DNA of 64,000 nt from an uncultured Victivallales bacterium (GCA_964472315.1 CAYYJS010000002.1:54315-118314), one strand, 5' to 3'. Counted from the stretch's first letter, positions 4,138 through 53,200 are shown. Translations and numbers: made by a program. The notes: a model not told the origin generated them from the letters alone.

Positions 4138-4159
4138 CAAGGGCGAGGGGAAGTCGACC

Positions 4160-5083: not shown

Positions 5084-5118
5084 CGCCGCCGGGCCGGGCG
5101 GTTTCCGCCGTTTCCGCC

Positions 5119-6709: not shown

Positions 6710-6773
6710 ACGGCGGTGAAGCCGATGATGGTTGCGGTGCACGGATCTGACGTTGACGCAGAGGAACGACGGT

Positions 6774-12017: not shown

Positions 12018-12118
12018 CCGCATGTTGCGTGTGCGGTTCGCGCACGGGGCGGTAGTCTGTGGAAGCGCGGGATGCCCGCGGTTGCGCCACATGGTGAGGA
12101 AGAGAAAAGGGGGAAGCC

Positions 12119-12895
12119 ATGACGGAAGCGAAGAGATACACGATTCTGCTGATCGACGACAACCGGCACCTGACGGTGACGCTATCGGATTTCCTGACGT
12201 ATGAAGGGTACGAAGTCGTAACCGCGCGGTCCGGCGAGGAGGGGTTGAAGCGGCTCGAACACCTGAGGCCCGATCTGATCATCCTCGACATCAGCATGCC
12301 CGGCATGGGCGGCATGGGATTCCTGAAGCGGATTACCGGGACTGACGGCGAGACCCGCTATCCCGTGCTGGTTTTCACGGCGCGTTCGTCGATGGAGGAG
12401 TTCTTCGGAACCATTAAAGTGGCCGGTTTCGTGGCCAAGCCGTGTTCCGAGGCCGAGTTGCTGCATGAGGTTCGGGCTGTCCTTGTCGCCCGCGAGCCCG
12501 CTGAGGAAAAGCCGGTGGCGACCGTGCATTGCGTGCTGGTCGGAGAGGACGACGACGATGTGCTGCTGTCGTTGCGTCGGCGACTGGTCAACGAGGGTTA
12601 CCATGTCGAGGACGCATCGTCGGGGGCGGCCGTCCTCGAGAAAGCGGCGGCATGCCGTCCGTCCGCGATTCTTGTCAAGGAGGTCCTGCCGGGCATGAAC
12701 GGCCGCATCGTGGCCCCCCTGATTCGCGCCATGCCGAGCACGCGACATGTGCCGATCGTCCTGTACGACGACACCCGGTCGTTGAGCGAGGCGTCCAGGT
12801 TCGGGCGTCACACCCACCCCGAAGGCGTGACGGAGTACCTCCTGACGAGCGATGCGACGGACCTGATTGCCGTGGTTAACCGACTTCTCCTGTAG
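12119..12895 (+). CDS. Two-receiver-domain response regulator; second receiver degenerate
   Basis: REC1 has LLIDDNRH ... LIILDISMPGMGG. The second REC-like half has VLVGEDDDD but ILVKEV where the phospho-acceptor Asp is expected. Confidence 0.7.
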   Translation: MTEAKRYTILLIDDNRHLTVTLSDFLTYEGYEVVTARSGEEGLKRLEHLRPDLIILDISMPGMGGMGFLKRITGTDGETRYPVLVFTARSSMEEFFGTIKVAGFVAKPCSEAELLHEVRAVLVAREPAEEKPVATVHCVLVGEDDDDVLLSLRRRLVNEGYHVEDASSGAAVLEKAAACRPSAILVKEVLPGMNGRIVAPLIRAMPSTRHVPIVLYDDTRSLSEASRFGRHTHPEGVTEYLLTSDATDLIAVVNRLLL

Positions 12896-24283: not shown

Positions 24284-25888
24284 TTACGGGAGGGACGGCA
24301 CGTTGGTGGCGCCGATCCGGTAGAACGCGCGGTCGGCTACCGGCGGGGCGGCTTCCATCCACGTGTTCGTTCCCTGACGCGCGTCGCTCAGTCCGGCCTG
24401 CGTCCATCCGGCGGCGCTGGCCATGTTCGTGCTGCGGAGCACGATATACGGAGACAGTTCCGGATCGATGCAGGCGCTGTGCCAGACGACGTAGTTGGTT
24501 CCATTTACCGTACCGGCCTCGGCGACCTTAAGGTAGGAATCCGGATCGTTCGGATCGGTGGAACTCCAGTACTCGTCGCCGTTGCAGTAGGCATCGCCAT
24601 CCGTATTGGTGGCGGCGGCCTCGGTGAAATCGGCCGTTGCGCCCACGTTGTCGTGCAGCCACCAGTGCGGGACGCCGCTGGCGGTCTTGTCGGCGATGAA
24701 GTACACCTTGATGGTATGGTGGTCCGTCACGTTCGAGAACGTGTACCCCGTGATCTGGCCCTGCGTGATGTCGTCCACCAGTACATCGCCCACGCTCCAA
24801 TAGAGGGCGGGTGTCATGGTGAAATTGGTCGTGCCGTTGAACGGCACCTCAACGGCGCCGACCGGGGCGATGGTTCCTTCACCCGCCTCGACGGTAGCGG
24901 TGATCGTCTTCATACCGCTTTCCGTAAAGATGGCATGGATCGAGTGGTTGGTCGTAACATTTTCGAAAGCCCAGGAAGCGGGCGTGCCCTGGTTGACGCC
25001 GTCGACGATGACCTGACTGATCGCGTAGTCGAGGAAGTTGCTGATGATCACGCTGTGACTGCCGCCGTTGGTGACGGAGACGTCGCCATCCGGGACGATC
25101 GTGCCGCCGTCGGAATGCGACACGCTGATGGTCCAGTTCTGTGTGGCGAACGGATCGCTGTCGGTGACCACGAAGTCATCCAAGTAGGCGGTGCCGGACA
25201 CCGAAACGGCCGAGACTTTGCCGTTGCTGAACAGCATCGGGAACCATGGGCCGCCCGGTTCGCTGCCATCCGTCGGCTGGGTTCGTCCCTGCTCGTTGGT
25301 CACGGCTACGCCGTCGATATTGAACCTGAAATAGGTGTTATAGTATGTATTGTCGGATTCGGCATAATTCATTTCGATCGTGACGCGCACCCAGTCCGAT
25401 GTGGCGATCGTCACCTCGGGGATCTCCGTCCACACTTTCGCGGCGGTGCTATAGTTCGCGTGATGAATAACCGGATGTCCATTCGTCGTAAAATAGTAGG
25501 CCATCTGAGCATCGTCAGGTATGGCGGGATTGTTGGTCTCCTCCCAGAAATGGGGGTTGATGACGTGATCGATCCAGACGTGACCGCCGCTGTCGCTGAC
25601 AACCGCATTCGTAGCGTCGCTTTGGACCTTGAGAACCTTCGTATGGGCGCCTGGCATCGGGTAGGCGCCGCCGGTATAGTTCGTATACGTCCGCTCTTCG
25701 ACCACAAGCGCTTCGGGGTCCGGCGCCGTCCATGTGCCGTCGCCGACCAGAAGCGTGCCGTTGGTATAGCTCTCGAACGAATCCGCGTAGTAATTCGTCG
25801 CGGCGGATGCCGGGGTGGCAAAAAGCGCCAGTACGGCAACCAGAAATCCCATGCCACCACACTGTTCGCGACACGTGATCTGCTTCAT
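24284..25888 (-). CDS. Large secreted protein with tandem B-repeat-like domains and an N-terminal lectin-like region
   Basis: RBS GGAGAGGG before ATG 25888. Signal peptide. Rich in Thr/Asn/Gly/Asp. Two roughly 70-aa internal repeats with the shared pattern ...Y.IS.V.VDG..QG....Y.F.NVT.NH.I.A.F. The long + strand ORF 23948..26125 is antisense artefact. Confidence 0.6.
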   Translation of the reverse strand: MKQITCREQCGGMGFLVAVLALFATPASAATNYYADSFESYTNGTLLVGDGTWTAPDPEALVVEERTYTNYTGGAYPMPGAHTKVLKVQSDATNAVVSDSGGHVWIDHVINPHFWEETNNPAIPDDAQMAYYFTTNGHPVIHHANYSTAAKVWTEIPEVTIATSDWVRVTIEMNYAESDNTYYNTYFRFNIDGVAVTNEQGRTQPTDGSEPGGPWFPMLFSNGKVSAVSVSGTAYLDDFVVTDSDPFATQNWTISVSHSDGGTIVPDGDVSVTNGGSHSVIISNFLDYAISQVIVDGVNQGTPASWAFENVTTNHSIHAIFTESGMKTITATVEAGEGTIAPVGAVEVPFNGTTNFTMTPALYWSVGDVLVDDITQGQITGYTFSNVTDHHTIKVYFIADKTASGVPHWWLHDNVGATADFTEAAATNTDGDAYCNGDEYWSSTDPNDPDSYLKVAEAGTVNGTNYVVWHSACIDPELSPYIVLRSTNMASAAGWTQAGLSDARQGTNTWMEAAPPVADRAFYRIGATNVPSLP

Positions 25889-26060: not shown

Positions 26061-26089
26061 TTGATTCCGGCGGCATCGTTGCCTATAGT
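26061..26089 (+). promoter_or_regulatory. Candidate sigma70-type promoter (TTGATT-17 nt-TATAGT) for the pilus-like operon
   Basis: TTGATT at 26061-26066. 17-nt spacer. TATAGT at 26084-26089. The 9-mer ATAGTACCC is repeated at 26085 and 26111. Confidence 0.3.
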
Positions 26090-26151
26090 ACCCGTGTTTC
26101 GCGGAGTCCCATAGTACCCTTGTGACCGTTATTCAGGAAAGGTGGTTTCCC

Positions 26152-26793
26152 ATGACCCTGACCGCGAGTGTGATGTTGACCGTGGTCGTGACCACGGCCG
26201 CTTGCGTTGTTCCATCGGTCGCGCAGACGCGGACGGGGGAGTACGGCGCCGGACGGGCGGGGGCTGAGGCCGAGACCGTGCGCATCCGCAAGTTAAACGG
26301 TCTTTCGCCGCGGTCCGTGGTAACCACGCCGGTCTATGGGTCGAGCGTCGGTCGCAGTGCGAAGCCGCCACGCGAATGGCTTGAGGTTCAAGTGATTTAC
26401 GACACGGCGCCGGCGTGGATCGACGAGTTGGTCATCGAGTACTTCGTCATGAGCATGGACCGTACGGAAGGCCGCAACACCTACTCCCTGTTCAAGACGA
26501 TCGTTCGCTATCGCGATGTGGAACGTGACCGTAACCACATCGGCGTGGCCTATCTGCTGCCTTCCGCGTTGAAGCGCTACGGCCGCGTCGTGGCGGTTGC
26601 CGTCGAGGTCAGCCACGATGGCAAAGTCGTGGCCTCCGAGACGGATACGGGCATCACGTTGCCTCCGGGGTGGTGGCGAAGCCCCGCGGTTGTCGAAAAC
26701 AAGGATATGACCGTTCGAGAGGGGTATTTGGTGGAGAAGTCCAAGTCGCCGTTCGCCTTGGTCAATGTGGATGACTATGAGGTGGCCAAGTAG
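26152..26793 (+). CDS. Hypothetical secreted protein, first gene of the pilus-like operon
   Basis: GGAAAGGTGG RBS 6 nt before ATG 26152. Signal peptide MTLTASVMLTVVVTTAACVVPSVAQ. Its stop TAG overlaps the GTG start of the next gene. Confidence 0.5.
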   Translation: MTLTASVMLTVVVTTAACVVPSVAQTRTGEYGAGRAGAEAETVRIRKLNGLSPRSVVTTPVYGSSVGRSAKPPREWLEVQVIYDTAPAWIDELVIEYFVMSMDRTEGRNTYSLFKTIVRYRDVERDRNHIGVAYLLPSALKRYGRVVAVAVEVSHDGKVVASETDTGITLPPGWWRSPAVVENKDMTVREGYLVEKSKSPFALVNVDDYEVAK

Positions 26794-28463
26794 TGTCGCT
26801 CTTCGAAAGTGACCGTGTCATCGCGCTGGATATCGGAGCCAGCAAGATCGTACTCGCCGAATTCGGGGTTTCCCGCGGCGGCGAAATCGAACTGCTTCGC
26901 TATGGCATCGAGAAGCAGTCGGGCGACATGGGTACGGAGGCTGACCAGTTGGCGTACATCGCCGCCAACGTACGGTCGTTGATGCGCGAACAGGGCATCA
27001 AGCCGGCGCCGCTGGTGATGTGCGTTTCGGGGCAGGCCGTGTTTCCGCGGTACGTCAAGCTGCCGCCGGTAAGTCGTGACAAGCTTCAGCAGATCGTCCA
27101 GTACGAGGCCGAGCAGAACGTACCGTTTCCCATAAAGGAAGTGGTTTGGGATTACCAGTTGCTGGGCGGCGAGGATGGCGAGCAGAATGTCATGCTCGTC
27201 GCGGTGAAGATCGAGAACGTCAAACGGTTGACCGATGCCGTGCAGACGGCCGACCTCGAGCCGGAGATCGTCGACGTCGCCCCGATGGCGCTTTACAACA
27301 CCGTTCGTTACAACTATCCGAATCTAGCCGGATGCACGATGATCCTCGATATCGGCGCCCGGTCGTCGAACCTGATTTTTATCGAGGAATCGCGAATCTT
27401 CAGCCGCAGTATCCCCGTTGCCGGAAACGCCATCACCCAGGAAATCATGAAGGCCTTCGACGTGCCGCATGACGAGGCCGAGGCGTTGAAGCGCGAGCAC
27501 GGTTTTGTCGCCTTCGGCGGCGTCTTCGCCGGTCCGGACGATGAGATCGCGGAGCGTGTCTCGAAGATCATGCGCAACGTCCTGACGCGCCTGCATGCCG
27601 AAGTGAACCGTTCGATCAATTTCTACCGCAGCCAGCAGGGCGGTTCGCCTCCGAATCTTGTCTTGTTGTGCGGCGGCTCGTCCGTGATTCCGCACGTCGA
27701 CACGTTCTTTCGCGAGAAGCTGCAGGTGGACATCGAGTATCTGAACCCGTTTGCCAGCGTCGTTGTCGGCGATGAAATCGATGCCGCCGCGATCAACCGC
27801 GACCTGCACCTGCTCGGGGAGGTTGTCGGCCTCGGACTGCGTCGGGCGCTGACGTGCCCCGTCGAGATCAATCTGATGCCGCCCGACCTCGTGGCCCGCA
27901 AGGAGTTCCGCAAGCGGCAGCCTTATTTCGTCGTTTCCGCGGTCGCCTCGGTGCTCGCCATGCTGTGTTGGTGGGTGTACTTCCACCGGATGGGGAATGT
28001 GATCGACGAGCGTGCCGGTATTGTCCGCGAGAAGATCGCCGCGTTCCGCGGGATCGAGGCGCGGTTGTCCGAGGCCGTTCGGGATCGCGGGTTTGCGCAG
28101 GCGAGGCTTGCGAAACTGGCTGCGCCGATCGCCATGCGCGGACGTTGGATCGAGTTGATCGATGCCGTGCACGCGTGCATGTGGGATGGCATGTGGGTGA
28201 CGGGGTGGAAGCCGGTTGTCGAGAATGGCCGGGTTGTGCGTATCCACCTGACCATGCATGCGTTCGTGGACCGTATGCAGAACACGCCCGAGGGCACGGC
28301 CGCCGAACGTTTCCGAAACGCGCTGCGGGACCGCCCGGAGTTTGGCGCCGACACCGACATCGCCAGCGAGATGGGGATCGGCGTCGGCGGGTTCCTGCGG
28401 AAGTTCGAGATGAAGGTTGTCGTGGCCGAGGCGCCGAGCGTCAGGGCGGTTGAGGACCGATGA
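26793..28463 (+). CDS. pilM: Type IV pilus assembly protein PilM (actin-like ATPase fold) fused to a PilN-like transmembrane/periplasmic domain
   Basis: N-terminal VIALDIGASKIVLAEF. The rest of the first 350 aa has the PilM/FtsA-like pattern. A single TM helix follows (QPYFVVSAVASVLAMLCWWVYF), then a 150-aa periplasmic tail. Confidence 0.75.
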   Translation: MSLFESDRVIALDIGASKIVLAEFGVSRGGEIELLRYGIEKQSGDMGTEADQLAYIAANVRSLMREQGIKPAPLVMCVSGQAVFPRYVKLPPVSRDKLQQIVQYEAEQNVPFPIKEVVWDYQLLGGEDGEQNVMLVAVKIENVKRLTDAVQTADLEPEIVDVAPMALYNTVRYNYPNLAGCTMILDIGARSSNLIFIEESRIFSRSIPVAGNAITQEIMKAFDVPHDEAEALKREHGFVAFGGVFAGPDDEIAERVSKIMRNVLTRLHAEVNRSINFYRSQQGGSPPNLVLLCGGSSVIPHVDTFFREKLQVDIEYLNPFASVVVGDEIDAAAINRDLHLLGEVVGLGLRRALTCPVEINLMPPDLVARKEFRKRQPYFVVSAVASVLAMLCWWVYFHRMGNVIDERAGIVREKIAAFRGIEARLSEAVRDRGFAQARLAKLAAPIAMRGRWIELIDAVHACMWDGMWVTGWKPVVENGRVVRIHLTMHAFVDRMQNTPEGTAAERFRNALRDRPEFGADTDIASEMGIGVGGFLRKFEMKVVVAEAPSVRAVEDR

Positions 28464-29548
28464 AAAGCAAACAGGTCATTCTGGTATCCATCTGCGGCGT
28501 GGGCGTCATCCTCTTCGCGCTGGCAGGCTTCCTGCTTGTGCGCGGGTTCGTGAACTTCAGCGGGGCGATCGAGAAGTTCAACAAGGAGAAACAGGCGCTG
28601 GGGCATTACTACCAGAAGAACCCGTTCCCGTCCGAGGCCAACATCCGCCTCGAAGAAGACAACGCGCAAATGTTGAACGCGTGGCATGAACAGCTCTTCA
28701 AGCGTCTGATCGCCAAGAATGTCGTCAGCACCGAGGACAGCGGATCGCGCTTTCGACAGAACTATGACGAGACGAAGAAACGTCTGCTGGGCGCGGCGAA
28801 GGACGTGCAAATCGCGGGTGGCAACACCTTTGCCTTCGGCTTCGACCGCTACTCCGGTACCGGTGAACTTCCGCAATCGTCGGAGGTGCCGGTATTGATG
28901 GAACAGCTTGCGATCGTCGAGCGGTTGTGCGGCATCCTGTTCGAGAATGGCATCAAAGCGATGGGGGCGGTGCGCCGCGACGTCGTGGAGTCGGCGTCCA
29001 CCACCGGCGGATCCGTGACGGTGCCAGGTGGTCAGCCCGGCGTGGGTTCCGCGCCGCCGGGACGTCCCGTGCGCTCGGGCGCACCGGTTGGTCCGGCCCC
29101 GCTCGTGCCGCCGAAGGCCCGGCGAAAAGCCGTGCCCGGCGACGAACCGACGGAACCCATGCGCCCCGTCGGGAAGATGTATTCACGGCTGCATTTCGGC
29201 TTCGACTTTCGCGCCAAGGAAAGCGCTTTGCTTGGTATTCTCAACGCGATGGCATCGAACGACATGTTCATTGTCATGACGTCGATTTCGTTCGAGGCGG
29301 GCGTTCCCGAGATGATGCCCGTGGCCGTGCCCGTCGTATCAGGAGGCGATGCCGCGGCGATCCCCGCTTTGCCGCCCGCCCCCGTTCCGGCGGTGGGCGC
29401 TCCGGCGGAGACAGGCAACGTGCCTCAGGCATGGGAACGACGCAAGGACGAACGCATTGTGAGTGGGCCTGTGCACGAGATCCCCATGGATGTGACTTTG
29501 GAACTCGACGTCTATAAATTCCAGCCGGAGTCGCACCATGGCGATTAG
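28460..29548 (+). CDS. PilO-like bitopic periplasmic protein (Amuc_1100-position protein)
   Basis: GAGGA RBS. N-terminal TM helix. Coiled-coil periplasmic segment. Pro/Gly-rich linker (PGGQPGVGSAPPGRPVRSGAPVGPAPLVPP). Globular C-terminus. Confidence 0.5.
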   Translation: MKSKQVILVSICGVGVILFALAGFLLVRGFVNFSGAIEKFNKEKQALGHYYQKNPFPSEANIRLEEDNAQMLNAWHEQLFKRLIAKNVVSTEDSGSRFRQNYDETKKRLLGAAKDVQIAGGNTFAFGFDRYSGTGELPQSSEVPVLMEQLAIVERLCGILFENGIKAMGAVRRDVVESASTTGGSVTVPGGQPGVGSAPPGRPVRSGAPVGPAPLVPPKARRKAVPGDEPTEPMRPVGKMYSRLHFGFDFRAKESALLGILNAMASNDMFIVMTSISFEAGVPEMMPVAVPVVSGGDAAAIPALPPAPVPAVGAPAETGNVPQAWERRKDERIVSGPVHEIPMDVTLELDVYKFQPESHHGD

Positions 29549-30608
29549 CCTGAACATCCGCGGCGGGTTTGCGCACCTGTGGCGGCAGTACGATAAGCTC
29601 ATGGCGTTCCTGGCGTTGGCGCTGCTGCTCGCCTCCCTGGTCTATCTGGCCGTGCGGGTGGGGCTGATTCAGAGCATGAAACGCGACTTCGACATGGAGA
29701 TGAAGAGCCTGCGCGCGATGCACGAAAAGGCGGCGACGGTTGCCGCCGACGTCTTCGATGCCGCCGTGGCAGGGCTCGACAAACCGGTCTCCCTGGGGCA
29801 CCAGGCGTGGACTAACGTCGCGTTTTCGGTTCCCGAGGTGCGTGTTACGTGCACCGATCAACGGTGTCAGCGGCCCGTGCCCTATGCGGCCGCGACCTGT
29901 CCTCTGTGCCTGAGCCCGCAGCGCGAGGACAAGACGGAAGTCGAGCCACCCAAGGACAGCGATGGCGATGGCATGCTCGACGATTGGGAATTGCAGTACG
30001 GACTGGACCGGTACGACGCCGGGGACGCCGCGAACGACACCGATGGCGATGGGCACAAGAATCTCGGTGAATTCCTGGCCAAGACCGACCCGACCGATCC
30101 GGCCAGCCGTCCCCCTGTCATCGATCAGTTGCGCGTGGAGAAGGTTTCGAGCGTGAGCTTCGGCATCCTGTTCAAGAGCCGAGTTACGACCGGAAAAGGC
30201 GAGCGCTTCGGTCTGAACTACAGACAGGCCGGGCAGATTAAGACGGACTTCGTCGGCGTCGGGGATACCGTGGCGGGGTTCCTCGTCAGCAAGTTCGACC
30301 ACAAGACCAGAGATGTCGATCAGCCGTACAAGCACAAGCAGGACGTCTCGGAACTGACGCTTGTCCGCGGGGACCATACCATTGTGCTTGTTCGCGGGCA
30401 GGACTACAACGAGACCGAACAGACCGCGCACTTCGTGTCGCTATTCGACGATGCGAAGTATCTGGCCAAGCAGGGCGAGTTTCTGACGGTCGACGGGTCC
30501 AGGTACGAGGTTATAGAGATTGACACTCGCGGTGAGCGTGTTGTATTACGGCCGGAAAACGATTCCGGCCAGACAGTGGTTGTACGGCGTCTCACGGTGC
30601 CCCGGTGA
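29538..30608 (+). CDS. Membrane-anchored periplasmic protein with Cys4 zinc-ribbon and two DxDxDG calcium-binding motifs
   Basis: TM helix LMAFLALALLLASLVYLAV. CTDQRC ... CPLC. DSDGDGMLDDWE and DTDGDGHKNLGEF are thrombospondin-type-3/dockerin-like motifs. C-terminal beta-rich domain. Confidence 0.5.
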   Translation: MAISLNIRGGFAHLWRQYDKLMAFLALALLLASLVYLAVRVGLIQSMKRDFDMEMKSLRAMHEKAATVAADVFDAAVAGLDKPVSLGHQAWTNVAFSVPEVRVTCTDQRCQRPVPYAAATCPLCLSPQREDKTEVEPPKDSDGDGMLDDWELQYGLDRYDAGDAANDTDGDGHKNLGEFLAKTDPTDPASRPPVIDQLRVEKVSSVSFGILFKSRVTTGKGERFGLNYRQAGQIKTDFVGVGDTVAGFLVSKFDHKTRDVDQPYKHKQDVSELTLVRGDHTIVLVRGQDYNETEQTAHFVSLFDDAKYLAKQGEFLTVDGSRYEVIEIDTRGERVVLRPENDSGQTVVVRRLTVPR

Positions 30609-30679
30609 AGGGGTGGCCGTGATGGCTCGTGTTTGTCCTCGCTAGCGGGGTGTGAGAGAATCCCAAGGAGATGTTCTTC

Positions 30680-33600
30680 ATGCAAGACGATCGGCGGTTC
30701 ATCACGACATGTTCCATTCTGTTGGCCGCATTTACGGTGGCGGCGTATGCGCAAACCGGTAAGGACGAGAGCGGTACGATGGCCTTCGAGGATCTTGCGA
30801 TCGAGAGCGCGGTGGAAGGGGCGCTACCGACGGTTTCGGCGGATGACGACCTCCTCAAGACGTTGATGTCCGGCACCGAGGCGGATGTTCCCGTTGGCGC
30901 GATCGATGTAGGGAAAACGCTTCCGACAGTGCCCGATGGCAAGTCCGCGGTGCTGACGCTGGACGATGTTCCGGCGAGCGACTTGGCCGTGATCGAGGGC
31001 GCCGAAGCTCCGGCCGTGGATGTCGCTCCGGTCGAGGAGAAGGGCGTTGACACGCGCGGATCGGCTGCGGTGGCCGCCGCAGCCGAACCGCCCGTGAATC
31101 TGGTTGACGTTGCGACCGAGCTTGGTCTTACGGGGGAGACGGAAGTCGTGCCCCCCATGCCACGCGCCGCGGTTGCGGCGCCGCCGACGGACGACCTTGC
31201 GGATCTGCTGGCCGGCGAGGAGGAAACCGTAACCGTACCGTCCGTCCCGGCGCCTCCCGTCATTCCGGTTTCGTTGGCGGAAGAGGTTCCCGTCGTGGAA
31301 TCCGTCACACCCTTGGAAACGGTTCCGGAAGAGACGGCGACGGTTTCCGCGGTTGTCGACAAAGTCCCTGCCCCGCCTGTCGTGACCGATGACATAGGAA
31401 TCGAAGACCTCATCAAGGAACTTGCAGGCGAGACCGAGGCCGAGATGGCTATCGAGCGGGTTCCGATCGAAACACCCCAGCCTCCCGCGTCTGTCGACGT
31501 CGTCCCGCCGCCCGCTGAAGACGTCCCTCCCGCACCGGTGGTCGCGCCCGTCGAAATCGTCGATCAGCCGCCGGAGTTTGTGGACGACATGGCCATCGAT
31601 GCCGACGTGCTCAAATCCCTGACACGCGAGGCACGCGCCGACACGACGACGGCTGCTGTTGCGGAGGCGCCCGCCATGGAGCTTGTCATCGAAGGCCTGA
31701 TCGATGAAGCCGAACTCGCCGTCGAGCCGCCGACGGCGCCGCCGCCGGCCCGAGTCGAAAAGCCGGTTCTGCCGATCGAGGAAACCGTCGCCGAACCGGT
31801 CGGCTCACCGTCCGTGGCGAAACCGCTTCCGCCCGTCGGAAAAACGGTAGATACTCCGACACCTGCGGTTGCCGAGGACATGGGTGCCGCTGTCGAGAAT
31901 GTGACCGCGACGGGTGAGCCTGCGATTGCTGAGCGGGCCGTTCGTAATCGGTCCGATGTCGCTCTGGACACGTTCGCGGTTCAGGAGTCCCTGAAGCGTA
32001 TCGCGGAAGAGGCGCATGGGCTGGAGAGCCTCCAACTGGGCGAGCAGGCGCTTGCCGATCGCCAGTTTCAGAAGGCCGTGACGCGGTTCGACGAAGCGTT
32101 GCGCTTCATCCCTGAGCGTGCCGACACGGTGGAATCGCGGGGCCGCGCGCGTCGTGGTCTGGCCGCGGCGTACTATGTGCAGGCGCTATCCTTCGAGCGC
32201 GAGAACGAGCTCGATAAGGCACTGGCTGCGGCCATCAACGCCGTCAACTACGGGTATATCAAGGCCGAATCCACGGTTCGCCGGCTCAAACTCAAGATCG
32301 AGAAGGGCCCGATCGCCCCGCCGCCGACGAAGGATCGCCGATGGGAAGAGGAGTCGTATCTCGACATCCAACGACAGATTCAGGAGTGGTTGAAGCGGGG
32401 GCGCGAAGCCTATTTGGCGCATGAATACGAGAAGTCGCGTGGGGCGTTCGAATCCGTCCTGGCGCGTGACCCGCACAACAAGGAAGCTATTCGCATGCTG
32501 CGGCGCGCCTCCGACAAGATGTACGACCGGGCGTCGATGGAGCTGGAATCGACGCGATCGCGCATGATGGAGTCGGTGCGTGACACTTGGAATCCGCGCG
32601 ACTATGGCATATTGGAGACGCCGATGGAGGCCAAGGTCGGACGTGCGGCCACGAAGCCGGTCGACGAGATCGAACGGGAGAAGATCCTGGCCAAGATGCA
32701 GCAGATCAGGATTCCGGAGGTCGATTTTCGGCAGGCGAACATCCGTGATGTGATCGATTTCCTGCACAGCCAGAGCGTCGAGAACGACACTACGACGGGC
32801 GAGGGGCGCAAGGGCGTCAACTTCATTCTCAAACTGGACGAAGGCGCCGCGAAGGCTGGTGGCCGGGTCACGCCTGCCGCATCCACCGATCCGTTCGCCG
32901 CCACGGCCGATGTATTCGGGGGGCCGGCGGCGGCCGCTCCGGGCGCCGGCGCCGACAACCTGGTGACGTTCGGCGCGCTCGACATTACGCTGAAGGAAGC
33001 GCTGGACATTGTCGTCGACATCGCACACCTCAAGTATCGGATCAAAGAGAGCGTCGTGATGATCGTTCCCTTCGATGAAGCATCGGGCGAGATCATCCAT
33101 CGCATGTACGACGTCTTGCCGTCTTTTGTCACGAAGTCCGGCGAATTGAGCGAAGCCTTGCGGTCCTCCCGTAGCGACCGCGGCGGCGGCGATTTTATCC
33201 CCATGGGCGAGCCCGGTGGCGGGGGCGGTGCGCCCAGCGCCGAGCAGGACTGGAAGGTGGTGTTTACGGAGATGGGTGTCGAATGGCCGCAACGGTCATC
33301 CATCAAGTACGTGCCGACGATCGGCAAGCTGATTGTCGCCAATACGGCCGAAAACCTGACGGTCTTCGAAAAGGTGCTATCGGTACTCAATGTCATTCCG
33401 TATCAGGTGGAAATCGAGGCCCGCTTCGTGGAGGTCGCCCAGACGGATATCGACTCGCTCGGACTCGAGTGGTTACTTACCGACAACTGGGAACTTGCCG
33501 AGAAGAAGACGGATGCCGGGTTGCCGCTGGCGGCGCGCGAGCGCTTGGTGCTGAACGCGAATGTCAACTCGGGCGGGTTCACCAAGGGGAATCGGTTCCT

Positions 33601-34396
33601 GACGAAAAGCGCGCCGGGCGGCATGACGCTTGCGGATGACATTCTCAGCATGAGCGCCGTGCTGACGAATCCGGAGATGTCGGTGATCCTCCACGCGTTG
33701 CAGCAGCGCGGGCACACGGACCTGCTTTCAGCGCCGAAGATCACCACGCAGTCGGGGCAGGAGGCGTCGCTCAAGGTGGTGACCGAGTACATCTACCCGA
33801 CCGAATTCGAGACGTCCGGCATTGGCGGCGGCACTACGGTTGGCGCCGGCGGCGCGGCGGTGGGGGGCGGCACGGTGGGCGCCGTCGTGACACCGACCGC
33901 GTTCGAGACGCGCGAGGTCGGCGTCATTCTCTCGGTGTTGCCGGAAGTGACCCCCGAAGGTCAGATGATCAACTTGACCATGTCGCCGGAAGTCGTCTCC
34001 GAGCCGACCTGGAAGAACTACGGATCGACGTATCAGTCGGACATCAACGGGGATGGCGTGCTCGAAACGCAGACGCTGAATATGGAACAGCCGTTTTTTC
34101 ATACGCGTCAGCTCAACACGAGCATGTTGATCTACAATGGTGCGACCGTCGTGATGGGCGGCATGATTACCGAGGTGCGGCACGATGTTGACGACAAAGT
34201 GCCGTTTCTCGGCGATATCCCGATTTTCGGACGGCTCTTCCGGAGCAAGAGCGAGACGAGCGAGAAGCGCAACCTGCTTATCTTTGTCACGGCCCGCCTG
34301 GTCGATCCGGCCGGGCGCCCCTTGGATCAGACGCGGCAGGGCTTGCTTACCGACGTGCTTGCGGAAGGCCTGATGGAGAAGGATGGCACGAAGTAG
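30680..34396 (+). CDS. pilQ: Secretin (PilQ/GspD family), giant form with low-complexity N-terminus and TPR-like segment
   Basis: Signal peptide. Roughly 450 aa that are Ala/Pro/Val/Glu-rich. TPR-like helices. C-terminal secretin domain (LLSAPKITTQSGQEASLKV ... VPFLGDIPIFGRLFRSKSETSEKRNLLIFVTARLV). Start could be 30671 or 30680. Confidence 0.85.
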   Translation: MQDDRRFITTCSILLAAFTVAAYAQTGKDESGTMAFEDLAIESAVEGALPTVSADDDLLKTLMSGTEADVPVGAIDVGKTLPTVPDGKSAVLTLDDVPASDLAVIEGAEAPAVDVAPVEEKGVDTRGSAAVAAAAEPPVNLVDVATELGLTGETEVVPPMPRAAVAAPPTDDLADLLAGEEETVTVPSVPAPPVIPVSLAEEVPVVESVTPLETVPEETATVSAVVDKVPAPPVVTDDIGIEDLIKELAGETEAEMAIERVPIETPQPPASVDVVPPPAEDVPPAPVVAPVEIVDQPPEFVDDMAIDADVLKSLTREARADTTTAAVAEAPAMELVIEGLIDEAELAVEPPTAPPPARVEKPVLPIEETVAEPVGSPSVAKPLPPVGKTVDTPTPAVAEDMGAAVENVTATGEPAIAERAVRNRSDVALDTFAVQESLKRIAEEAHGLESLQLGEQALADRQFQKAVTRFDEALRFIPERADTVESRGRARRGLAAAYYVQALSFERENELDKALAAAINAVNYGYIKAESTVRRLKLKIEKGPIAPPPTKDRRWEEESYLDIQRQIQEWLKRGREAYLAHEYEKSRGAFESVLARDPHNKEAIRMLRRASDKMYDRASMELESTRSRMMESVRDTWNPRDYGILETPMEAKVGRAATKPVDEIEREKILAKMQQIRIPEVDFRQANIRDVIDFLHSQSVENDTTTGEGRKGVNFILKLDEGAAKAGGRVTPAASTDPFAATADVFGGPAAAAPGAGADNLVTFGALDITLKEALDIVVDIAHLKYRIKESVVMIVPFDEASGEIIHRMYDVLPSFVTKSGELSEALRSSRSDRGGGDFIPMGEPGGGGGAPSAEQDWKVVFTEMGVEWPQRSSIKYVPTIGKLIVANTAENLTVFEKVLSVLNVIPYQVEIEARFVEVAQTDIDSLGLEWLLTDNWELAEKKTDAGLPLAARERLVLNANVNSGGFTKGNRFLTKSAPGGMTLADDILSMSAVLTNPEMSVILHALQQRGHTDLLSAPKITTQSGQEASLKVVTEYIYPTEFETSGIGGGTTVGAGGAAVGGGTVGAVVTPTAFETREVGVILSVLPEVTPEGQMINLTMSPEVVSEPTWKNYGSTYQSDINGDGVLETQTLNMEQPFFHTRQLNTSMLIYNGATVVMGGMITEVRHDVDDKVPFLGDIPIFGRLFRSKSETSEKRNLLIFVTARLVDPAGRPLDQTRQGLLTDVLAEGLMEKDGTK
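30900..32000 (+). repeat. Low-complexity, reiterated Pro/Val/Ala/Glu-rich coding segment inside the secretin gene
   Basis: Recurring VPAPPV, AEEVPVVESVTPLETVPEE and VDVVPPPAEDVPPAPVVAPVEIVD units. It produces the long spurious antisense ORF 30592..31416. Confidence 0.5.
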
Positions 34397-34438: not shown

Positions 34439-35317
34439 ATGTCAACCTCGCGACTAGTCCTCATCGATGCCATGGGCATCGTCTATCGGAGTTTCTTTGC
34501 GATCCGGAACCTGTCCAGGTCGGATGGCGTTCCGACGAATGCGCTATTCGGGTTCATCCGCGCGCTGAACCAGGTGCGCGCACGCATGACCCCGACGCAC
34601 TGGGTGGTTGTGTTCGATGGTGGGCTGCCGTCGGAGCGAACCGTCCGTCTGCCGGAGTACAAGGCCCAACGTCCGCACATGCCGGACGACATGCGCGTTC
34701 AACTGCCGTACATCAACCGGTACCTGGAGGCCGCGGGTGTGCCTTCGCTGTTGCGTGACGCATGCGAAGCGGACGACCTGATCGCCTCGCTGGTGGCGCG
34801 CCATGCCGCCGATGTCGATGGCGTGGTTATTCTTTCGAGCGATAAGGACATGTATCAGCTTGTCAGCGACAAGGTGCGCGTGACGCGGTCCGGTACGGGC
34901 GAGGATGCCATGGGGCCGGCGGAAGTGGAAGCGAAGACCGGTGTACGGCCCGAGCAGGTTGTCGAGTGGCTGGCGCTGGTCGGTGATGCCGCCGACAACA
35001 TTGGCGGGGTGCCTGGGGTTGGGGGCAAGACGGCGAGCCGGTTGTTGAAGGCGTACGGGACGATCGACGGGTTATGGGCGCACTTGGGCGAACTGGGAGA
35101 GGGGCGCGTCGCGACCAGCCTGGCCGCTTCGCGGGCCATCGTCGAGCGCAACCTGTCGGTCGTGCGGTTGACCTCCGATCTGGCTGACCTGCCGACGTTG
35201 ACCGAGTTGGCCGTGCAACCGGAGCCGACGTCGCGCGTGGTGGCCTTTTATGAGGAGATGGAGTTCCACGCGTTGGCGCGGGCGGCACGGTCGCCCGAAC
35301 TGTCGCTGGGCGGTTGA
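34439..35317 (+). CDS. Stand-alone 5'-3' exonuclease / flap endonuclease (Pol I N-terminal domain homolog)
   Basis: LVLIDAMGIVYRSFFA start. Acidic catalytic clusters. H3TH-like GVPGVGGKTASRLL. No polymerase domain follows. Confidence 0.8.
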   Translation: MSTSRLVLIDAMGIVYRSFFAIRNLSRSDGVPTNALFGFIRALNQVRARMTPTHWVVVFDGGLPSERTVRLPEYKAQRPHMPDDMRVQLPYINRYLEAAGVPSLLRDACEADDLIASLVARHAADVDGVVILSSDKDMYQLVSDKVRVTRSGTGEDAMGPAEVEAKTGVRPEQVVEWLALVGDAADNIGGVPGVGGKTASRLLKAYGTIDGLWAHLGELGEGRVATSLAASRAIVERNLSVVRLTSDLADLPTLTELAVQPEPTSRVVAFYEEMEFHALARAARSPELSLGG

Positions 35318-35324
35318 TTTTTTT
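35293..35324 (+). terminator. Possible intrinsic terminator (short stem + 7-T run) after the exonuclease gene
   Basis: CGCCC ... GGGCG stem overlapping the last codons. The stop TGA at 35315-35317 is followed directly by TTTTTTT, which is rare in this GC-rich sequence. Confidence 0.25.
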
Positions 35325-35479
35325 GCGTTGACGCGTCCGTGGGCCATGATATCCTTCACACACTTTCCCTGAGTGAGAACACCTGTTTATTCCCAACTAT
35401 GCCGTGATCGGCTCCCCGTGTTGACGCTACCCGCGCAGCGCGGTTTTCTGGTAACGCACACACAGATGCGGTTCCGGCC

Positions 35480-36097
35480 ATGGTGCAGATAGCAGTTACA
35501 GGCGGGATTGCCTGCGGGAAGACGCTCGTGGGCGAGTTTCTCAAGGCGCGAGGCGTGGTGGTGTGCGACGCGGACCCCATTGCGCATGATCTGCTGCGGC
35601 GTGGCGAGCCGGTGTTCGAGGGTGTCGTGGAAGCGTTCGGTCCCGGCGTTCTCACGGTCGATGGGGATGCGATCGACCGCGGCTTGCTGGGTGGTATTGT
35701 GTTTGGGGACGCGGTGGCGCGGGCGCGACTGAACGCGTTGGTGCACCCGGTTGTCGCGATGCGGTTGGACGCGTGGCGACGCGATGCGAAAGCGGCGGGT
35801 GCGTACGTGATCGCGGCGTTGGTGCCGTTGCTTTTCGAGGCCGGCATGGACGCCGGGTGGGACGCCGTCGTCTGCGTTGTCGCCTCGCCGGCCACGCAGC
35901 GGGAACGGTTGCTGGCGCGGGGCCTGAGTGAAGCGGCGGCGGTGTGCCGGATGCAGGCGCAGTTGCCGCAGGCGGTCAAGGCCGCGCGGAGCGACTACGT
36001 GATCGTCAACGACGGGACACGGGACGTGGCGGAGGAGCAAACGAGTCGGGTGCTGAAGCGCATCCTGGAGAGACCCTATGGCAGAGAACGCGAATAA
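35480..36097 (+). CDS. coaE: Dephospho-CoA kinase
   Basis: [13 protein letters not shown]-loop at the N-terminus. About 200 aa. Confidence 0.85.
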
Positions 36098-37532
36098 TGG
36101 TGGACAGCAACAGCAGCAACGCAAGCCGCCGCGTGGGCGCGGCATACGGAACCGCGGCCGTGGCGGCAATGGCGATGGAATGAACCCGCAGCGCGGCATG
36201 GCGCAGAGCGATCAGCCCTCCGCCCAGCAGCAGCGCCCCCGCGAGGAACCCCGCGAGCCGTTGCCCGCGGGCGTGCCTGACGTGCTGAGGCTATACGAGT
36301 TGCAGTCCATGTCGGTCCCCGACCTCAACACGATGGCGGACAGTCTTGGCCTGGTGGAACTGGGCGCCATGCGGAAGCATGAGCTGATTTTCGAGATCCT
36401 CAAGGCGCATGCGCGCTATGAGGGCAAGATCATGAGCCGGGGCGTGCTTGAGATTCTGCCGGACGGCTTCGGTTTTCTACGTTCCCCGTACAACAACTAC
36501 CTGCCTTGTCCCGAGGACATCTACGTGTCGCCGTCCCAGATCCGGCGGTTTGCGTTGCGGACAGGCGACCATGTCGAAGGCGAGATTCGGGAGCCGAAGG
36601 AGAAAGAGCGGTTTTTCGCGATGTTGCGCGTGGACCGCGTCAATGAGGCGGAGCCGGAGAAGTCGCGGCAGAAGATTCCGTTCGAGAATCTGACGCCTTT
36701 GTTTCCGGACCGCCGCGTATCGCTCGAAAGCGATCCGAAGGGTATTTCGATGCGCGTGATGGACATCTTCACGCCGATCGGGTTCGGTCAGCGCGGGCTC
36801 ATCGTGGCCGCTCCGCGCACCGGCAAGACCGTCCTGCTTCAGCAGATCGCGAACAGCATCTCGGCGAACCACCCGGACGTGCACCTGATCATCCTGCTGA
36901 TCGACGAACGGCCGGAGGAGGTCACCGATATGACCCGCAATACGAAGGCGCACGTGCTCAGTTCGACTTTTGACGAAGCCCCGGACCGGCACATCCAAGT
37001 GGCCGAGCTGGTGATCGAGATGTCGAAACGCATGGTCGAGTGCGGCAAGGATGTCGTGATTCTGCTCGACAGCATCACGCGTCTGGCGCGCGCCTACAAC
37101 ACCGTTCAGCCGCACAGCGGCAAGATCCTCTCCGGCGGCGTCGACTCCAACGCCCTGCACAAGCCGAAGCGGTTTTTCGGCGCCGCGCGGAACATCGAAC
37201 ACGGGGGCAGTCTGACGATCATTGCGACGGCGCTGGTCGAGACCGGCAGTCGAATGGACGATGTCATCTTCGAGGAGTTCAAGGGCACGGGGAACATGGA
37301 GTTGTGCCTGGACCGTACGTTGAGCGACAAACGCATCTTCCCGTCCATCAACATCGAGAAGTCCGGCACCCGCAAGGAAGAGTTGCTGCTGCACCCGGAT
37401 GAACTGAACAAGGTATGGATTCTGCGGCGCGCGATCAACGGCGTTCCGGCGGTTGAGTCCATGGAAATGATCGTGAACCGGCTCAAGAAGACGAGCAGCA
37501 ATGCCGAATTCCTGATGTCGATGAAGGAATAG
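36078..37532 (+). CDS. rho: Transcription termination factor Rho
   Basis: Gln/Arg-rich N-terminal insertion. RNA-binding domain. [15 protein letters not shown] Walker A. Full length. Confidence 0.95.
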
Positions 37533-40979: not shown

Positions 40980-41122
40980 CCGCCTTGTGTCGGCCGCATG
41001 GCCACGTGCGTGTCGGATGACGGACGGAGGGATGCTGATGGGTCCCACGCCGGTGGAGAACCGGACTCCGAGTCGGTGGTCCCGTGGTTCCCCGGCGGTT
41101 GGCTCTTGCTCGGAACCGCATG

Positions 41123-42973
41123 CACTCTGGAAACCTGCCGAGTACCGATTGTCGCTCACGCCGCTGCCGGTTGCCATCGGGATGGGGCCGGTATAGTACG
41201 GCCATCCTCGCCCTGCTGATCGTGACCGCGGGTGTCTACCTGAGCGTACGTCAGCACGACTTCGTCGGCTTCGATGACGATGTGTACGTCCTCGATAACC
41301 CGTACCTGCGGGATGGGCTGTCGCTGAAGGGATTGCGCTGGGCGGCCACCGCCGTTCACGCGTCCACATGGCAGCCGGTGGTGTGGTTGTCGTTCATGCT
41401 GGACGCCGAGGTCTACGGTATCGATCCGGCCGGTTTCCACATGACCAACGTCGGCCTGCACCTGCTGAATGTCCTGCTGGTTGCCGTGGTGCTTGCCCGG
41501 GTCACCGGACAGCCCTGGTGTGCCGCGAGCGTGGCGGCGTTGTTTGCGCTGCATCCGGTGCATGTCGAATCCGTCGCCTGGGTCGCGGAACGGAAAGACG
41601 TGCTCAGCACCGTGTGCTGGTGGCTTTCCGTCGCCGCGTATGCCTCCTGGGTGCGCGAACCGCACCGGCGCGGCAGGTACGCGGTACTGCTCGGCGTCTA
41701 CATGGTCGGCCTCATGGCGAAACCCATGCTGGTCAGCCTGCCCGTCCTGCTGATCCTGATGGACTGGTGGCCGATGCGCCGTTGGGAAGGGTGGCGGCGA
41801 CAGTGTCGCGAGAAGTGGCCGCTTCTGGTGCCGGCCATCCTGTCGTCGGCCATCGCCGTCCATGTCCAGCATGCCGGGGGCTCTCTGCTGCCGATGGATG
41901 CCGTTCCGTGGTGGGGTCGCGTGGGTAACGCGCTGGTCTGCCCATGGCGCTATGTGGGCAACCTCGTATGGCCGCGTCATTTGGCGGTGCTCTATCCGCA
42001 TCCCGGCACGTGGTCGCTGGTACCGGTTGCCTTGTCCCTGACCGCCCTGGCGGCGACCCTTTACGCGGCGTGGCGTGCGCGCGCGCGCCGGCCGTGGCTG
42101 TGGTTTGGTTGCGTGTGGTTCCTTGTGGCCCTGCTGCCGGTGTCCGGACTGGTGCAGATCGGTTGGCATGCGATGGCCGACCGCTTCATGTACGTGCCCG
42201 CCATCGGCCTCTACGTGGCGCTCGTCTGGACGGTTGCGGCGTGCGGTGCGGACCCCGCCCGCCGCCGGGTCGCGGTCGGCCTCGGCCTTGTGACGCTTGT
42301 CGCGCTCGCGGCATGCTCGCGCCGGCAGATATCGTTCTGGGAGTCCAGCACCGTCTTATTCCAGCGTGCCGTCGACGTGACGGCCGACAACTGGATGATG
42401 GAAAACAGTCTGGGGGCGGCCTTGGAGCGGGCGGGCCGGTTCGCCGAAGCCGAGCCGCACATCCGGCGATCCATCGCCATCAAACCCGATCGATACCGCG
42501 CCTACTACAACCTGGGTTGCCTCGCGGTGCGCCGCGGCAACCACGATCTGGCCGAGCAGGCCTTCCGCGACGCGATTGAGCGGCATCCGGGGCACATCAA
42601 GTCGCGCCACAATCTATCGGTCGTCCTTGCGGCGCGGGCGCGACTGCCCGAAGCGGTGGACGCGGCACGCGCGTTGTTGGCGCGTGAACCGGGGCACGTG
42701 CCGGCCATGAACAACCTGGCATGCTGGCTTCGCGAACTCGGACGCACGGAGGAATCCCTGGCGGAGTTCGCGCGGATGGTCGAACGGGAGCCGGGGTATG
42801 TGATCGGGCGCTTCAACTACGGCGTGGCGCTCCTCGACGCCGGACGGCTGACGGAGGCCGCCCGCCAGTTTCAGGATGTCCTCGCCGCGCTACCCGACCA
42901 TGCGGGGGCGGCGACGGGGCTGGCGCGCGCGCGCGACGCGGCGCGTGCTCCCGTCAGCCCGACGCGGCATTGA
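41123..42973 (+). CDS. GT-C-fold polytopic membrane protein with C-terminal TPR repeats (TMTC/DUF1736-like putative glycosyltransferase)
   Basis: About 11 TM helices. FDDDVYVLDNPYL loop motif. Four or five TPR units at the C-terminus. Start uncertain (GTG 41084 or ATG 41123). Confidence 0.6.
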   Translation, partial: HSGNLPSTDCRSRRCRLPSGWGRYSTAILALLIVTAGVYLSVRQHDFVGFDDDVYVLDNPYLRDGLSLKGLRWAATAVHASTWQPVVWLSFMLDAEVYGIDPAGFHMTNVGLHLLNVLLVAVVLARVTGQPWCAASVAALFALHPVHVESVAWVAERKDVLSTVCWWLSVAAYASWVREPHRRGRYAVLLGVYMVGLMAKPMLVSLPVLLILMDWWPMRRWEGWRRQCREKWPLLVPAILSSAIAVHVQHAGGSLLPMDAVPWWGRVGNALVCPWRYVGNLVWPRHLAVLYPHPGTWSLVPVALSLTALAATLYAAWRARARRPWLWFGCVWFLVALLPVSGLVQIGWHAMADRFMYVPAIGLYVALVWTVAACGADPARRRVAVGLGLVTLVALAACSRRQISFWESSTVLFQRAVDVTADNWMMENSLGAALERAGRFAEAEPHIRRSIAIKPDRYRAYYNLGCLAVRRGNHDLAEQAFRDAIERHPGHIKSRHNLSVVLAARARLPEAVDAARALLAREPGHVPAMNNLACWLRELGRTEESLAEFARMVEREPGYVIGRFNYGVALLDAGRLTEAARQFQDVLAALPDHAGAATGLARARDAARAPVSPTRH

Positions 42974-49436: not shown

Positions 49437-50216
49437 ATGAGAGTGACGCATAACAGGGCGTTGATCAGGGTGGTCATGGTAGTCCTCGGCACGGGTGCCG
49501 CGATGGCGGCGGGAGCGGACTTCTCGCGTTACCAGAGCATTCTTGACCGGCGCCCTTTCGGGGCCGGCGAAAAAGCCGAGGCGGGTGAACCGGCGCGCGT
49601 CACGATGCCGGCGCAGGCGCCGTCGTTTGTGAAGGGCCTGCGTATGTGCGCGATCACCGAGAGCGATATCGGAACGCGTGTCGGCTTCGTCGAGATCGGG
49701 GGCAAGACGCCGAAGTCATACTACCTCTACGTCGGGGATGTTGAAGACGGCATTCAACTCGTCGATGCGGATTACGAGCGAGAGGGCGCGTTGCTGCGCA
49801 AGGGCGACGAGCAGTACTGGATCTACATGCGCGAGAATCAACCGACCGCGGTTTCGGAAGCGATGCCGCCCGGGCCTTCCGGTTCTCCCGCCCGGTCGCG
49901 AGTTGTCGGCATCCCCGCTCCCGGCGAGCGTACGCTGCGTGAACCGGCGATGGACGGCGCGCCTTTGACCGCGGGCGGCGCGCGCGAGTCGTATGCCGAG
50001 AGACGCCGCCGCCGACTCGATGAAATGCGGCAGCGCGTGCGGTCGTCGCGCGAGATTGAACCCGAGGATCTCGAGCAGCGGTTGCAGGATTACCAGATGC
50101 ACCTGATCCGTTCGGGGAAGACGCCGTTGCCGATTCCCTTGACGCCGGAAGCCGACCAGAAGCTGGTCGACGAAGGCGTACTGCCGCCGGTCGAAGCGTC
50201 CGCACCCAAGGAGTAG
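49437..50216 (+). CDS. Secreted hypothetical protein, paralog A of a tandem pair
   Basis: Signal peptide. Conserved DFSRYQSILDRRPFG, RMCAIT ... RVGFVEIGG, KSYYLYVGD ... LVDADYERE and a C-terminal LPIPLTPEADQKLVDEGVL. Confidence 0.55.
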   Translation: MRVTHNRALIRVVMVVLGTGAAMAAGADFSRYQSILDRRPFGAGEKAEAGEPARVTMPAQAPSFVKGLRMCAITESDIGTRVGFVEIGGKTPKSYYLYVGDVEDGIQLVDADYEREGALLRKGDEQYWIYMRENQPTAVSEAMPPGPSGSPARSRVVGIPAPGERTLREPAMDGAPLTAGGARESYAERRRRRLDEMRQRVRSSREIEPEDLEQRLQDYQMHLIRSGKTPLPIPLTPEADQKLVDEGVLPPVEASAPKE

Positions 50217-51029: not shown

Positions 51030-51309
51030 AAGTGGTCGATACCGACAGAATCGAGGCCCAAAGCTGGTGCGCCCCGAAAGGAAGGGCAATCGGCCAATGA
51101 CATGACGTGAAAAATACTTGCCATGGCACACGCAGACGTGCTACCGTACTGACACTAAGGGAAACCATTAGGTTCTAGAATGTGACTCGATTGCATCGCA
51201 GAATCAGAATAGGGTTGACGGGCTGCGATAGGTGATCTAGCATATTCTTCAGACACTAAGAGGCATGCTTTAGTAACTGAATGTGTGTTGCCGAAAGGGA
51301 GGACCAGCG

Positions 51310-53103: not shown

Positions 53104-53200
53104 GTCGACGGGTATTTGATACGCAGCGGGGAGCTGGCCATGGGTCAGCTCCCCGTTTTCTTTCTTGTACTCGAGCGATGCTTCCCGCTTACTGAATCCG

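Follow-up and report, generated by a model that had tools for sequence, protein, structure and literature searches.

The 64,000-nucleotide (nt) stretch of DNA from an uncultured Victivallales bacterium analysed here (the window) carries, on its plus strand at positions 26152-34396, an operon of five genes that is equivalent to the PilM-N-O-P-Q set of pilus assembly genes and is preceded, as its first member, by a gene for an Amuc_1102-like exported protein. The locus is a distant relative of the Akkermansia Amuc_1098-1102 (MUL2) locus and is a member of a family that is known, curated and already widespread; the window contributes to it a distant lineage, an acidic secretin extension specific to that lineage, and some domain assignments. 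The operon very probably encodes the alignment scaffold and outer-membrane pore of a filament machine of the type IVa pilus/type II secretion system (T2SS) class, of the Amuc_1098-1102 type that is specific to the Planctomycetes-Verrucomicrobia-Chlamydiae (PVC) bacteria. The original prediction, made on this DNA without database searches, had read it as a PVC-type pilus/secretin assembly operon, and this core reading is supported by family matches, by gene order and by a bridging locus of the Verrucomicrobiales; it also withstands the refuting conditions that had been set for the PilM and secretin assignments.

The best NCBIfam match of each open reading frame (ORF) falls, in gene order, to the Amuc_1102, Amuc_1101 (PilM-like), Amuc_1100, Amuc_1099 and Amuc_1098 (secretin) families. 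Gene 1 scores 51.4 bits (E 1e-13) with Amuc_1102_rel, just under the curated cut-off of 55; gene 2 scores 507 bits with Amuc_1101_fam (cut-off 650), gene 3 50.7 bits (E 1.7e-13) with Amuc_1100_fam (cut-off 180), gene 4 67.2 bits with Amuc_1099_fam, which passes its cut-off of 50, and gene 5 446 bits with Amuc_1098_fam (cut-off 750). Collinearity with Amuc_1098-1102 had been put forward in the original prediction; these collinear matches, together with precomputed Pfam annotation, show that the proposed synteny is correct.

The gene order is also found well beyond the window. Homologues of the PilM-PilN protein run into the thousands; those that match it best over the full length (57-82% identity) are named as Kiritimatiellia, Lentisphaerae, Verrucomicrobiota or PVC metagenome-assembled genomes, and a scan of species-representative genomes with the window protein yielded 15 loci, mostly of uncultured Victivallales. 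Comparative synteny, which had been proposed as a check and was carried out by tblastn, recovered the five-gene order in 11 of the 13 loci of Victivallales/Lentisphaerae type (L003-L015), the records of the other two (L007 and L011) breaking off within the PilM-PilN gene or very soon past it; a 5'-3' exonuclease gene lies downstream in all 11 complete loci and a divergently oriented gene for a 534-residue protein usually lies upstream. The bridging locus, L016 of the Verrucomicrobiales, has the same gene order and scores, in bits against the curated cut-off, 104 vs 55 for Amuc_1102, 636 vs 650 for Amuc_1101, 197 vs 180 for Amuc_1100, 172 vs 50 for Amuc_1099 and 811 vs 750 for Amuc_1098, with only Amuc_1101 just under. 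Its secretin gene is directly followed by the genes for dephospho-CoA kinase (CoaE) and then Rho with no exonuclease gene, and the CoaE-Rho pair is common to it and the window. Directly upstream of the Amuc_1102-like gene, and on the same strand, four related species have a prepilin-type gene (L010, 8303-9145; L012, near 392; L013, near 3219; L014, near 8391; all plus); the L010 gene encodes 280 residues, passes TIGR02532 and has a GspG-like N-terminus (GFTLLELL) and, by eye, an H-X9-DG-like C-terminus. The window is without a prepilin gene at that upstream position. A profile of the Amuc_1100-like clade matches 2,247 clusters at 50% identity at E <=1e-3, and 505 at E <=1e-30; the system is thus common in public data.

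The second gene (26793..28463, plus strand, 556 residues) encodes an Amuc_1101-family protein that had been predicted to be a PilM-PilN fusion, and this is borne out for the PilM half by Pfam, NCBIfam and PDB matches and for the PilN half by a profile match. The cytoplasmic actin-like PilM domain (nt 26814-27845) is placed in its family by Pfam PilM_2 (5e-41), by TIGR01175 pilM at 169.7 bits, above the curated cut-off of 133, and by PDB matches to the PilM proteins of Myxococcus xanthus (3e-40), Thermus and Pseudomonas aeruginosa. It is followed by the PilN N-terminal motif INLMPP (nt 27867-27884), a transmembrane (TM) helix (nt 27921-27986, residues 377-398) and a periplasmic coiled coil and domain (nt 27987-28460). 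The Pfam PilN model gives no match on this product; a profile of the C-terminal 205 residues matches M. xanthus PilN (3jc8_Na) with an E value of 3.9e-5 over PilN residues 3-125, and this match takes in the INLLP-type motif, here VEINLMPP at residues 357-364. The alignment to the engineered PilM-PilN(1-12) chimera 5EOU reaches query residue 363. As judged from these sequence matches the product is a genuine PilM-PilN fusion, whose architecture is GspL-like and whose sequence is of the PilM type.

The third gene (28460..29548, plus strand, 362 residues) encodes a bitopic protein that is anchored by an N-terminal TM segment and comprises a ferredoxin-like core and a helical stalk, with two inserts that are Pro/Ala-rich and disordered. 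It had been assigned the position of Amuc_1100 and a likeness to PilO. PF28028 (Amuc_1100) is found on 18 of 18 homologues and in the precomputed Pfam annotation of an identical protein, and the best PDB matches of the family profile are the Amuc_1100 entries 6KNY, 6LAD and 6LAF (E ~0.005). The family profile was required for this result; phmmer of the single sequence against PDB sequences gave nothing meaningful and no PilO match. The AlphaFold2 model has a mean predicted local distance difference test score (pLDDT) of 69.6, with values above 90 in the ordered core and two disordered inserts, and the first ten Foldseek ranks for it are crystal chains of the same three Amuc_1100 entries (E 1e-8 to 8e-7; target-normalised TM-score 0.67-0.75). 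They are followed by M. xanthus PilO (3JC8_Oa, E 6e-3), and P. aeruginosa PilO (2RJZ, 5UVR) is returned with a probability of 0.98-1.0 but an E value of 0.03-0.17, a likeness at the level of the fold only. NCBIfam, PF28028, profile and Foldseek all point to Amuc_1100, and the protein as modelled has the Amuc_1100 fold; its PilO-like character is suggested by the place of PilO right after the Amuc_1100 structures in the search with the model.

The fourth gene (29538..30608, plus strand, 356 residues) encodes a bitopic Amuc_1099-family protein with a TM anchor at nt 29589-29678. A Ca-binding zinc-ribbon protein had been predicted here, in agreement with a conserved Cys4 zinc ribbon (C105, C110, C121 and C124; nt 29853-29915) and two TSP3-type Ca-binding loops with invariant DxDxDG (nt 29949-30107), to which a probable domain of the PilP/GspC homology region (HR) type can now be added. 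It lies in the C-terminal region (nt 30129-30587), which is all-beta in the AlphaFold2 model (pLDDT 80.7); the structural match of the beta domain is to the GspC HR fold, GspC-HR being the top hit, and on the strength of the model the product appears to carry a secretin-binding beta domain of the PilP/GspC-HR type. Amuc_1099 and Amuc_1100 were called uncharacterised in a 2026 survey (PMC13174399), and among the papers searched none was found that links Amuc_1099 with PilP. Elsewhere in the window two tandem paralogues on the plus strand (49437-50216, 259 residues, and 50223-51029, 268 residues; 43% identical) share the conserved motif DFSRYQxILDRRPFG; both also have a signal or TM segment, and a short beta-rich part of each looks PilP/GspC-like by eye. 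Considered as extra PilP/GspC-like proteins they are unsupported, there being no Pfam, NCBIfam or PDB matches.

The fifth gene (30680..34396, plus strand, 1238 residues) encodes the Amuc_1098-family secretin. The secretin identity that had been claimed for its C-terminus is borne out by Pfam Secretin (1.3e-37) and by PDB matches of the core to PilQ (4AV2, 6e-20) and GspD (6HCG, 2e-17); the pore domain, at nt 33695-34306, follows the N-domains. The GspD model (162 bits, cut-off 351) and the PilQ model TIGR02515 (138.9 bits, cut-off 284) are both under their cut-offs, the Amuc_1098_fam match spans residues 432-1219, and Pfam found no AMIN domain. A signal peptide is followed by an extension that by composition is A/V/P/E/T/D-rich and disordered (nt 30770-31999; residues 31-440 of the 1238-residue form, net charge -59) and by a TPR-like helical region (nt 32000-32659). 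The acidic low-complexity N-terminus, for which this secretin had been called unusual, is thus real, and the TPR-like helices show a weak similarity at residues ~450-620 (E 0.003-0.02); however, the extension is not peculiar to this protein but a variable feature of the Victivallales-like clade, being present in all Victivallales-type loci with a secretin gene (115 to 518 residues, net charge -14 to -145) and absent from the Verrucomicrobiales secretin.

The first gene (26152..26793, plus strand, 213 residues, from an ATG at 26152 with an alternative GTG at 26122) encodes the Amuc_1102-like protein, with a predicted cleavable Sec-type signal peptide. It matches the Amuc_1102 crystal structure 7DSZ in phmmer (E 1.5e-4 over 141 residues), and PF28178 (Amuc_1102) is in the precomputed Pfam annotation of an identical protein. 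Amuc_1102 has been likened to an archaeal type IV pilin (PMC13174399).

By analogy with the characterised type IVa pili and T2SS, the parts would be arranged as an envelope-spanning assembly. The cytoplasmic actin-like PilM domain, fused in cis to a PilN part (an INLMPP motif, a single TM helix, and a coiled coil and domain in the periplasm), would contact the motor; the Amuc_1100-family PilO-like protein would be the periplasmic partner of the PilN part; from its inner-membrane anchor the Amuc_1099-family protein would bridge by its HR-like domain to the periplasmic N-domains of the secretin; and the secretin multimer would form the outer-membrane channel. The Amuc_1102-like exported protein would be an accessory or filament-associated component, and the genes for prepilins, PilB/PilT-type ATPases, the PilC platform and prepilin peptidase would lie at other sites of the genome. 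By analogy with Akkermansia MUL2, such a machine likely serves to attach to complex glycans or particles, or to acquire them.

Several results weigh against this assignment. Four of the five NCBIfam scores are under the curated equivalog cut-offs, Amuc_1099_fam alone passing, and the products are therefore distant homologues and not equivalogs. The PilO- and PilP-likeness rest on AlphaFold2 models from shallow alignments (18 sequences for gene 3, 15 for gene 4), and Foldseek of the gene 4 model is by itself not significant, PilP not being significantly found. Comparison by hhalign of the PilM-PilN C-terminal profile with the Amuc_1100-like alignment gave a probability of 0.4%. Pfam scans and a motif scan found no pilin, PilB/PilT, PilC or prepilin peptidase in the 64-kb window, and no GspE/PilB-type Walker A motif is found within +/-10 kb at any related locus. 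A paralogy of PilN and PilO, considered on the basis of sequence, is unsupported, the profile-profile comparison being without signal.

The best surviving alternative, although a rather unlikely one, is a T2SS-like scaffold, in which a short periplasmic pseudopilus would move enzymes or glycans through the secretin and no surface pilus would be made. The fused PilM-PilN mimics GspL and matches it weakly (E 1e-4), the secretin scores slightly better with the GspD than with the PilQ model (162 vs 139 bits), GspC-HR is the top hit for the Amuc_1099-family protein, the adjoining prepilin gene of L010 is GspG-like at its N-terminus, and MUL2 has been described as "similar to a secretion system", with mul genes tied to periplasmic glycan uptake (PMC13174399). 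However, the PilM model is above its curated cut-off while family-level cut-offs for GspL, GspD and GspC are not reached (for GspL 21 bits with a cut-off of 65, vs 169.7 bits for PilM), so that in comparison with the GspC-GspL-GspM-GspD assembly the sequence is PilM-type and the likeness is confined to the GspC HR fold match. In addition neither a PDZ domain nor a coiled-coil GspC tail is present, the operon and window are without GspE/F/G-K genes, and pili-like structures have been reported for the Akkermansia homologues (PMC5332112, PMC10688800).

A more far-reaching proposal, and a doubtful one, is that the MUL2-type machine stands within the type IV filament superfamily as a distinct third branch, set apart by the fusion of PilM and PilN in cis, by a PilP analogue that binds Ca and Zn and by the Amuc_1102 component, and widespread in Lentisphaeria/Kiritimatiellia and Verrucomicrobiales. 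Such a machine would serve mainly in glycan capture and periplasmic import and not as a classical pilus, and in this clade a polyanionic, disordered brush on the periplasmic N-terminus of the secretin (net charge ~-59 per subunit here) would have a part in substrate or Ca2+ handling.

The absence of prepilin, PilB/PilT and prepilin peptidase genes from the operon, to which the original prediction drew attention, holds for all 64 kb: a six-frame scan of the window found no prepilin motif, and the sole GPTGSGKT Walker A motif is that of ClpX. From this absence a stand-alone envelope-spanning conduit or adhesin-display device, with no filament or ATPase, had been suggested, and it is in keeping with such a device that no pilin or ATPase gene lies within +/-10 kb of most related loci and that the conserved divergent secreted protein could be displayed cargo. 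However, classical pilMNOPQ operons such as those of P. aeruginosa and Neisseria are also without pilin and ATPase genes, and the absence here is consequently no argument for a stand-alone conduit. In characterised type IVa pili, moreover, the alignment complex is connected through PilM with cytoplasmic motor and platform proteins, and a prepilin-type gene adjoins the operon in the four related species; to our knowledge there is no precedent for such a stand-alone device, and it is not favoured here, being highly improbable. Scarcely credible too is a DNA-uptake (competence) pilus like Thermus PilMNOWQ, linked to the downstream 5'-3' exonuclease: Thermus PilMNOQ-type scaffolds serve transformation (PMC6325625), HofQ-type secretin models match in part, and the exonuclease gene follows the secretin gene in all Victivallales-type loci that reach that far, with no terminator between them in the window, but the HofQ matches are limited to the C-terminal 70 residues, in Verrucomicrobiales CoaE-Rho comes straight after the secretin gene and an exonuclease gene is missing, so that the neighbourhood seems to reflect a conserved order of housekeeping genes, and Akkermansia genetics point to mucin acquisition (bioRxiv 10.64898/2025.12.30.696933).

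The scaffold and pore of a type IVa pilus/T2SS-class machine, as preferred here, share many features with Akkermansia Amuc_1098-1102. The products of that cluster have been described as pili-like proteins that are abundant in the envelope (PMC5332112), and reviews treat it as a type IV pili cluster in which Amuc_1098 is PilQ (PMC10688800). MUL2 is conserved in Akkermansiaceae and other Verrucomicrobiales, where in Akkermansiaceae its flank reads secretin, dephospho-CoA kinase, rho; neither Lentisphaerae nor Kiritimatiellia are mentioned in the 2026 MUL2 survey (PMC13174399). The window and MUL2 have in common the five families in the same order, the PilM-TM-periplasmic fusion, the Amuc_1100 fold, homology to the Amuc_1102 crystal structure, a TPR-like N-region of the secretin that falls within the Amuc_1098 model, and CoaE-Rho downstream. 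In contrast to these likenesses the relationship is very distant (Amuc_1100-like identity ~12% at the structure level) and the host is Victivallales/Kiritimatiellia-like, with 63% GC, and not of the Verrucomicrobiales; the window secretin has an extra ~410-residue acidic extension, a 5'-3' exonuclease gene is inserted ahead of CoaE, a conserved divergent gene for a 534-residue secreted protein lies upstream, and long, disordered inserts of Pro/Ala are present in the Amuc_1100-like protein.

With the type IVa PilMNOPQ systems of M. xanthus and P. aeruginosa and with Thermus PilMNOWQ the operon shares the functional logic and the M-N-O-P-Q order; a PilM domain, a PilN motif and TM helix and a secretin are all detected, and the structure models point to a PilO-like fold and a PilP-type beta domain. 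As in those organisms, pilin and ATPase genes lie outside the operon, and none is present in the window. Other features differ: PilM and PilN are one polypeptide here; the PilP analogue is TM-anchored and not a lipoprotein, and has in addition a zinc ribbon and Ca loops of the TSP3 type; the secretin has acidic disordered and TPR-like regions in place of a detected AMIN domain; and an extra Amuc_1102-like gene comes first.

The Amuc_1098-1102/MUL2 locus is of interest since it includes the immunomodulatory Amuc_1100 and is needed for mucin acquisition, according to Akkermansia genetics as cited in bioRxiv 10.64898/2025.12.30.696933 and PMC13174399. The same five-gene machine with its CoaE-Rho neighbourhood in a distant Victivallales/Kiritimatiellia-like lineage supports an ancient, general PVC apparatus for interaction with glycans or particles, and not a gut-specific invention. 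A family-wide architecture is thereby offered for test, in which the Amuc_1101 tail would be PilN, Amuc_1100 would be PilO-like and Amuc_1099, with its zinc ribbon and Ca loops, would be a bridge similar to PilP/GspC-HR. The locus itself will be no surprise to specialists, the family already having Pfam and NCBIfam models and comparative-genomic papers.

The layout of the operon follows from the ORF calls and their overlapping or abutting boundaries. The five co-directional, overlapping or adjacent genes that had been claimed are all present as plus-strand ORFs, at 26122/26152-26793, 26793-28463, 28460-29548, 29538-30608 and 30671/30680-34396, and the junctions read exactly as they had been described: TAGTG at 26791-26795 gives a 1-nt overlap of genes 1 and 2, ATGA at 28460-28463 a 4-nt overlap of genes 2 and 3, and the ATG at 29538 with the TAG stop of the upstream gene at 29546-29548 an 11-nt overlap of genes 3 and 4, and 62 or 71 nt separate gene 4 from the start of the secretin gene, which has its own ribosome-binding site (AAGGAG at 30665-30670, spaced 9 nt from the ATG at 30680). 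The starts at 26152 (213 residues) and 30680 (1238 residues) are those used by the gene calls on two public contigs of identical sequence. GC content at third codon positions is 0.77-0.81 for all five ORFs, similar to that of other genes of the window (63% GC). The proposed sigma-70-like promoter TTGATT-17-TATAGT is present at 26061-26089 on the plus strand, within the 263-nt divergent intergenic region, but is indistinguishable from chance: it matches the consensus at 9 of 12 positions, and the 4 promoter-like matches in the region are no excess over the 2.6 +/- 1.6 found in shuffled sequence. It is kept as a candidate only.

Downstream of the secretin gene the plus-strand order over 34439-37532 is 5'-3' exonuclease, dephospho-CoA kinase and Rho; this order is conserved, and its CoaE-Rho part extends even to MUL2 loci of the Verrucomicrobiales. 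The exonuclease gene (34439..35317; Pfam 5_3_exonuc on an identical contig) begins 42 nt past the secretin stop, and a terminator scan found no terminator-like site between the two, the first one lying at 35298-35315; it may be co-transcribed with the operon, and is probably not a functional part of the machine. CoaE lies at 35480-36097 and Rho at 36078-37532.

The divergent gene upstream of the operon (24284..25888, minus strand) encodes a 534-residue protein with a predicted signal peptide and a TSP3-like Ca motif. It has no Pfam match, and the Amuc_1099 model matches it weakly at residues 408-452; its position is conserved, by tblastn, in L004-L008, L010, L011, L013 and L014, and it may be a surface or cargo protein or an adhesin of the machine. 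The L010 homologue is a protein of 739 residues with repeated domains.

Other parts of the window contain genes of diverse kinds, and an Rfam scan of 1-64000 at gathering thresholds found no RNA family and no tRNA. A sulfatase gene (within 4138-6579) is followed downstream, at 6729-12892 on the plus strand, by genes for three PAS or hybrid histidine kinases in a row, of which two have receiver domains, and for a response regulator. A secreted protein of 222 residues (52435-53103, plus strand) ends in a C-terminal PEP-CTERM sorting motif (VPEPTSLALLAIGMATLAVSRRRRT) and is adjoined by a secreted protein of 360 residues with an internal duplication (51283-52365, plus strand); the GC content of the 50-53 kb stretch, 0.57-0.59, is below that found elsewhere in the window. 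The genes at 41039-42970 and 53165-56356, both on the plus strand, encode large membrane proteins that carry TPR arrays at the C-terminus, the latter also having domains like those of TMEM260/PMT-like protein O-mannosyltransferases, and these two products may be protein glycosylation enzymes.

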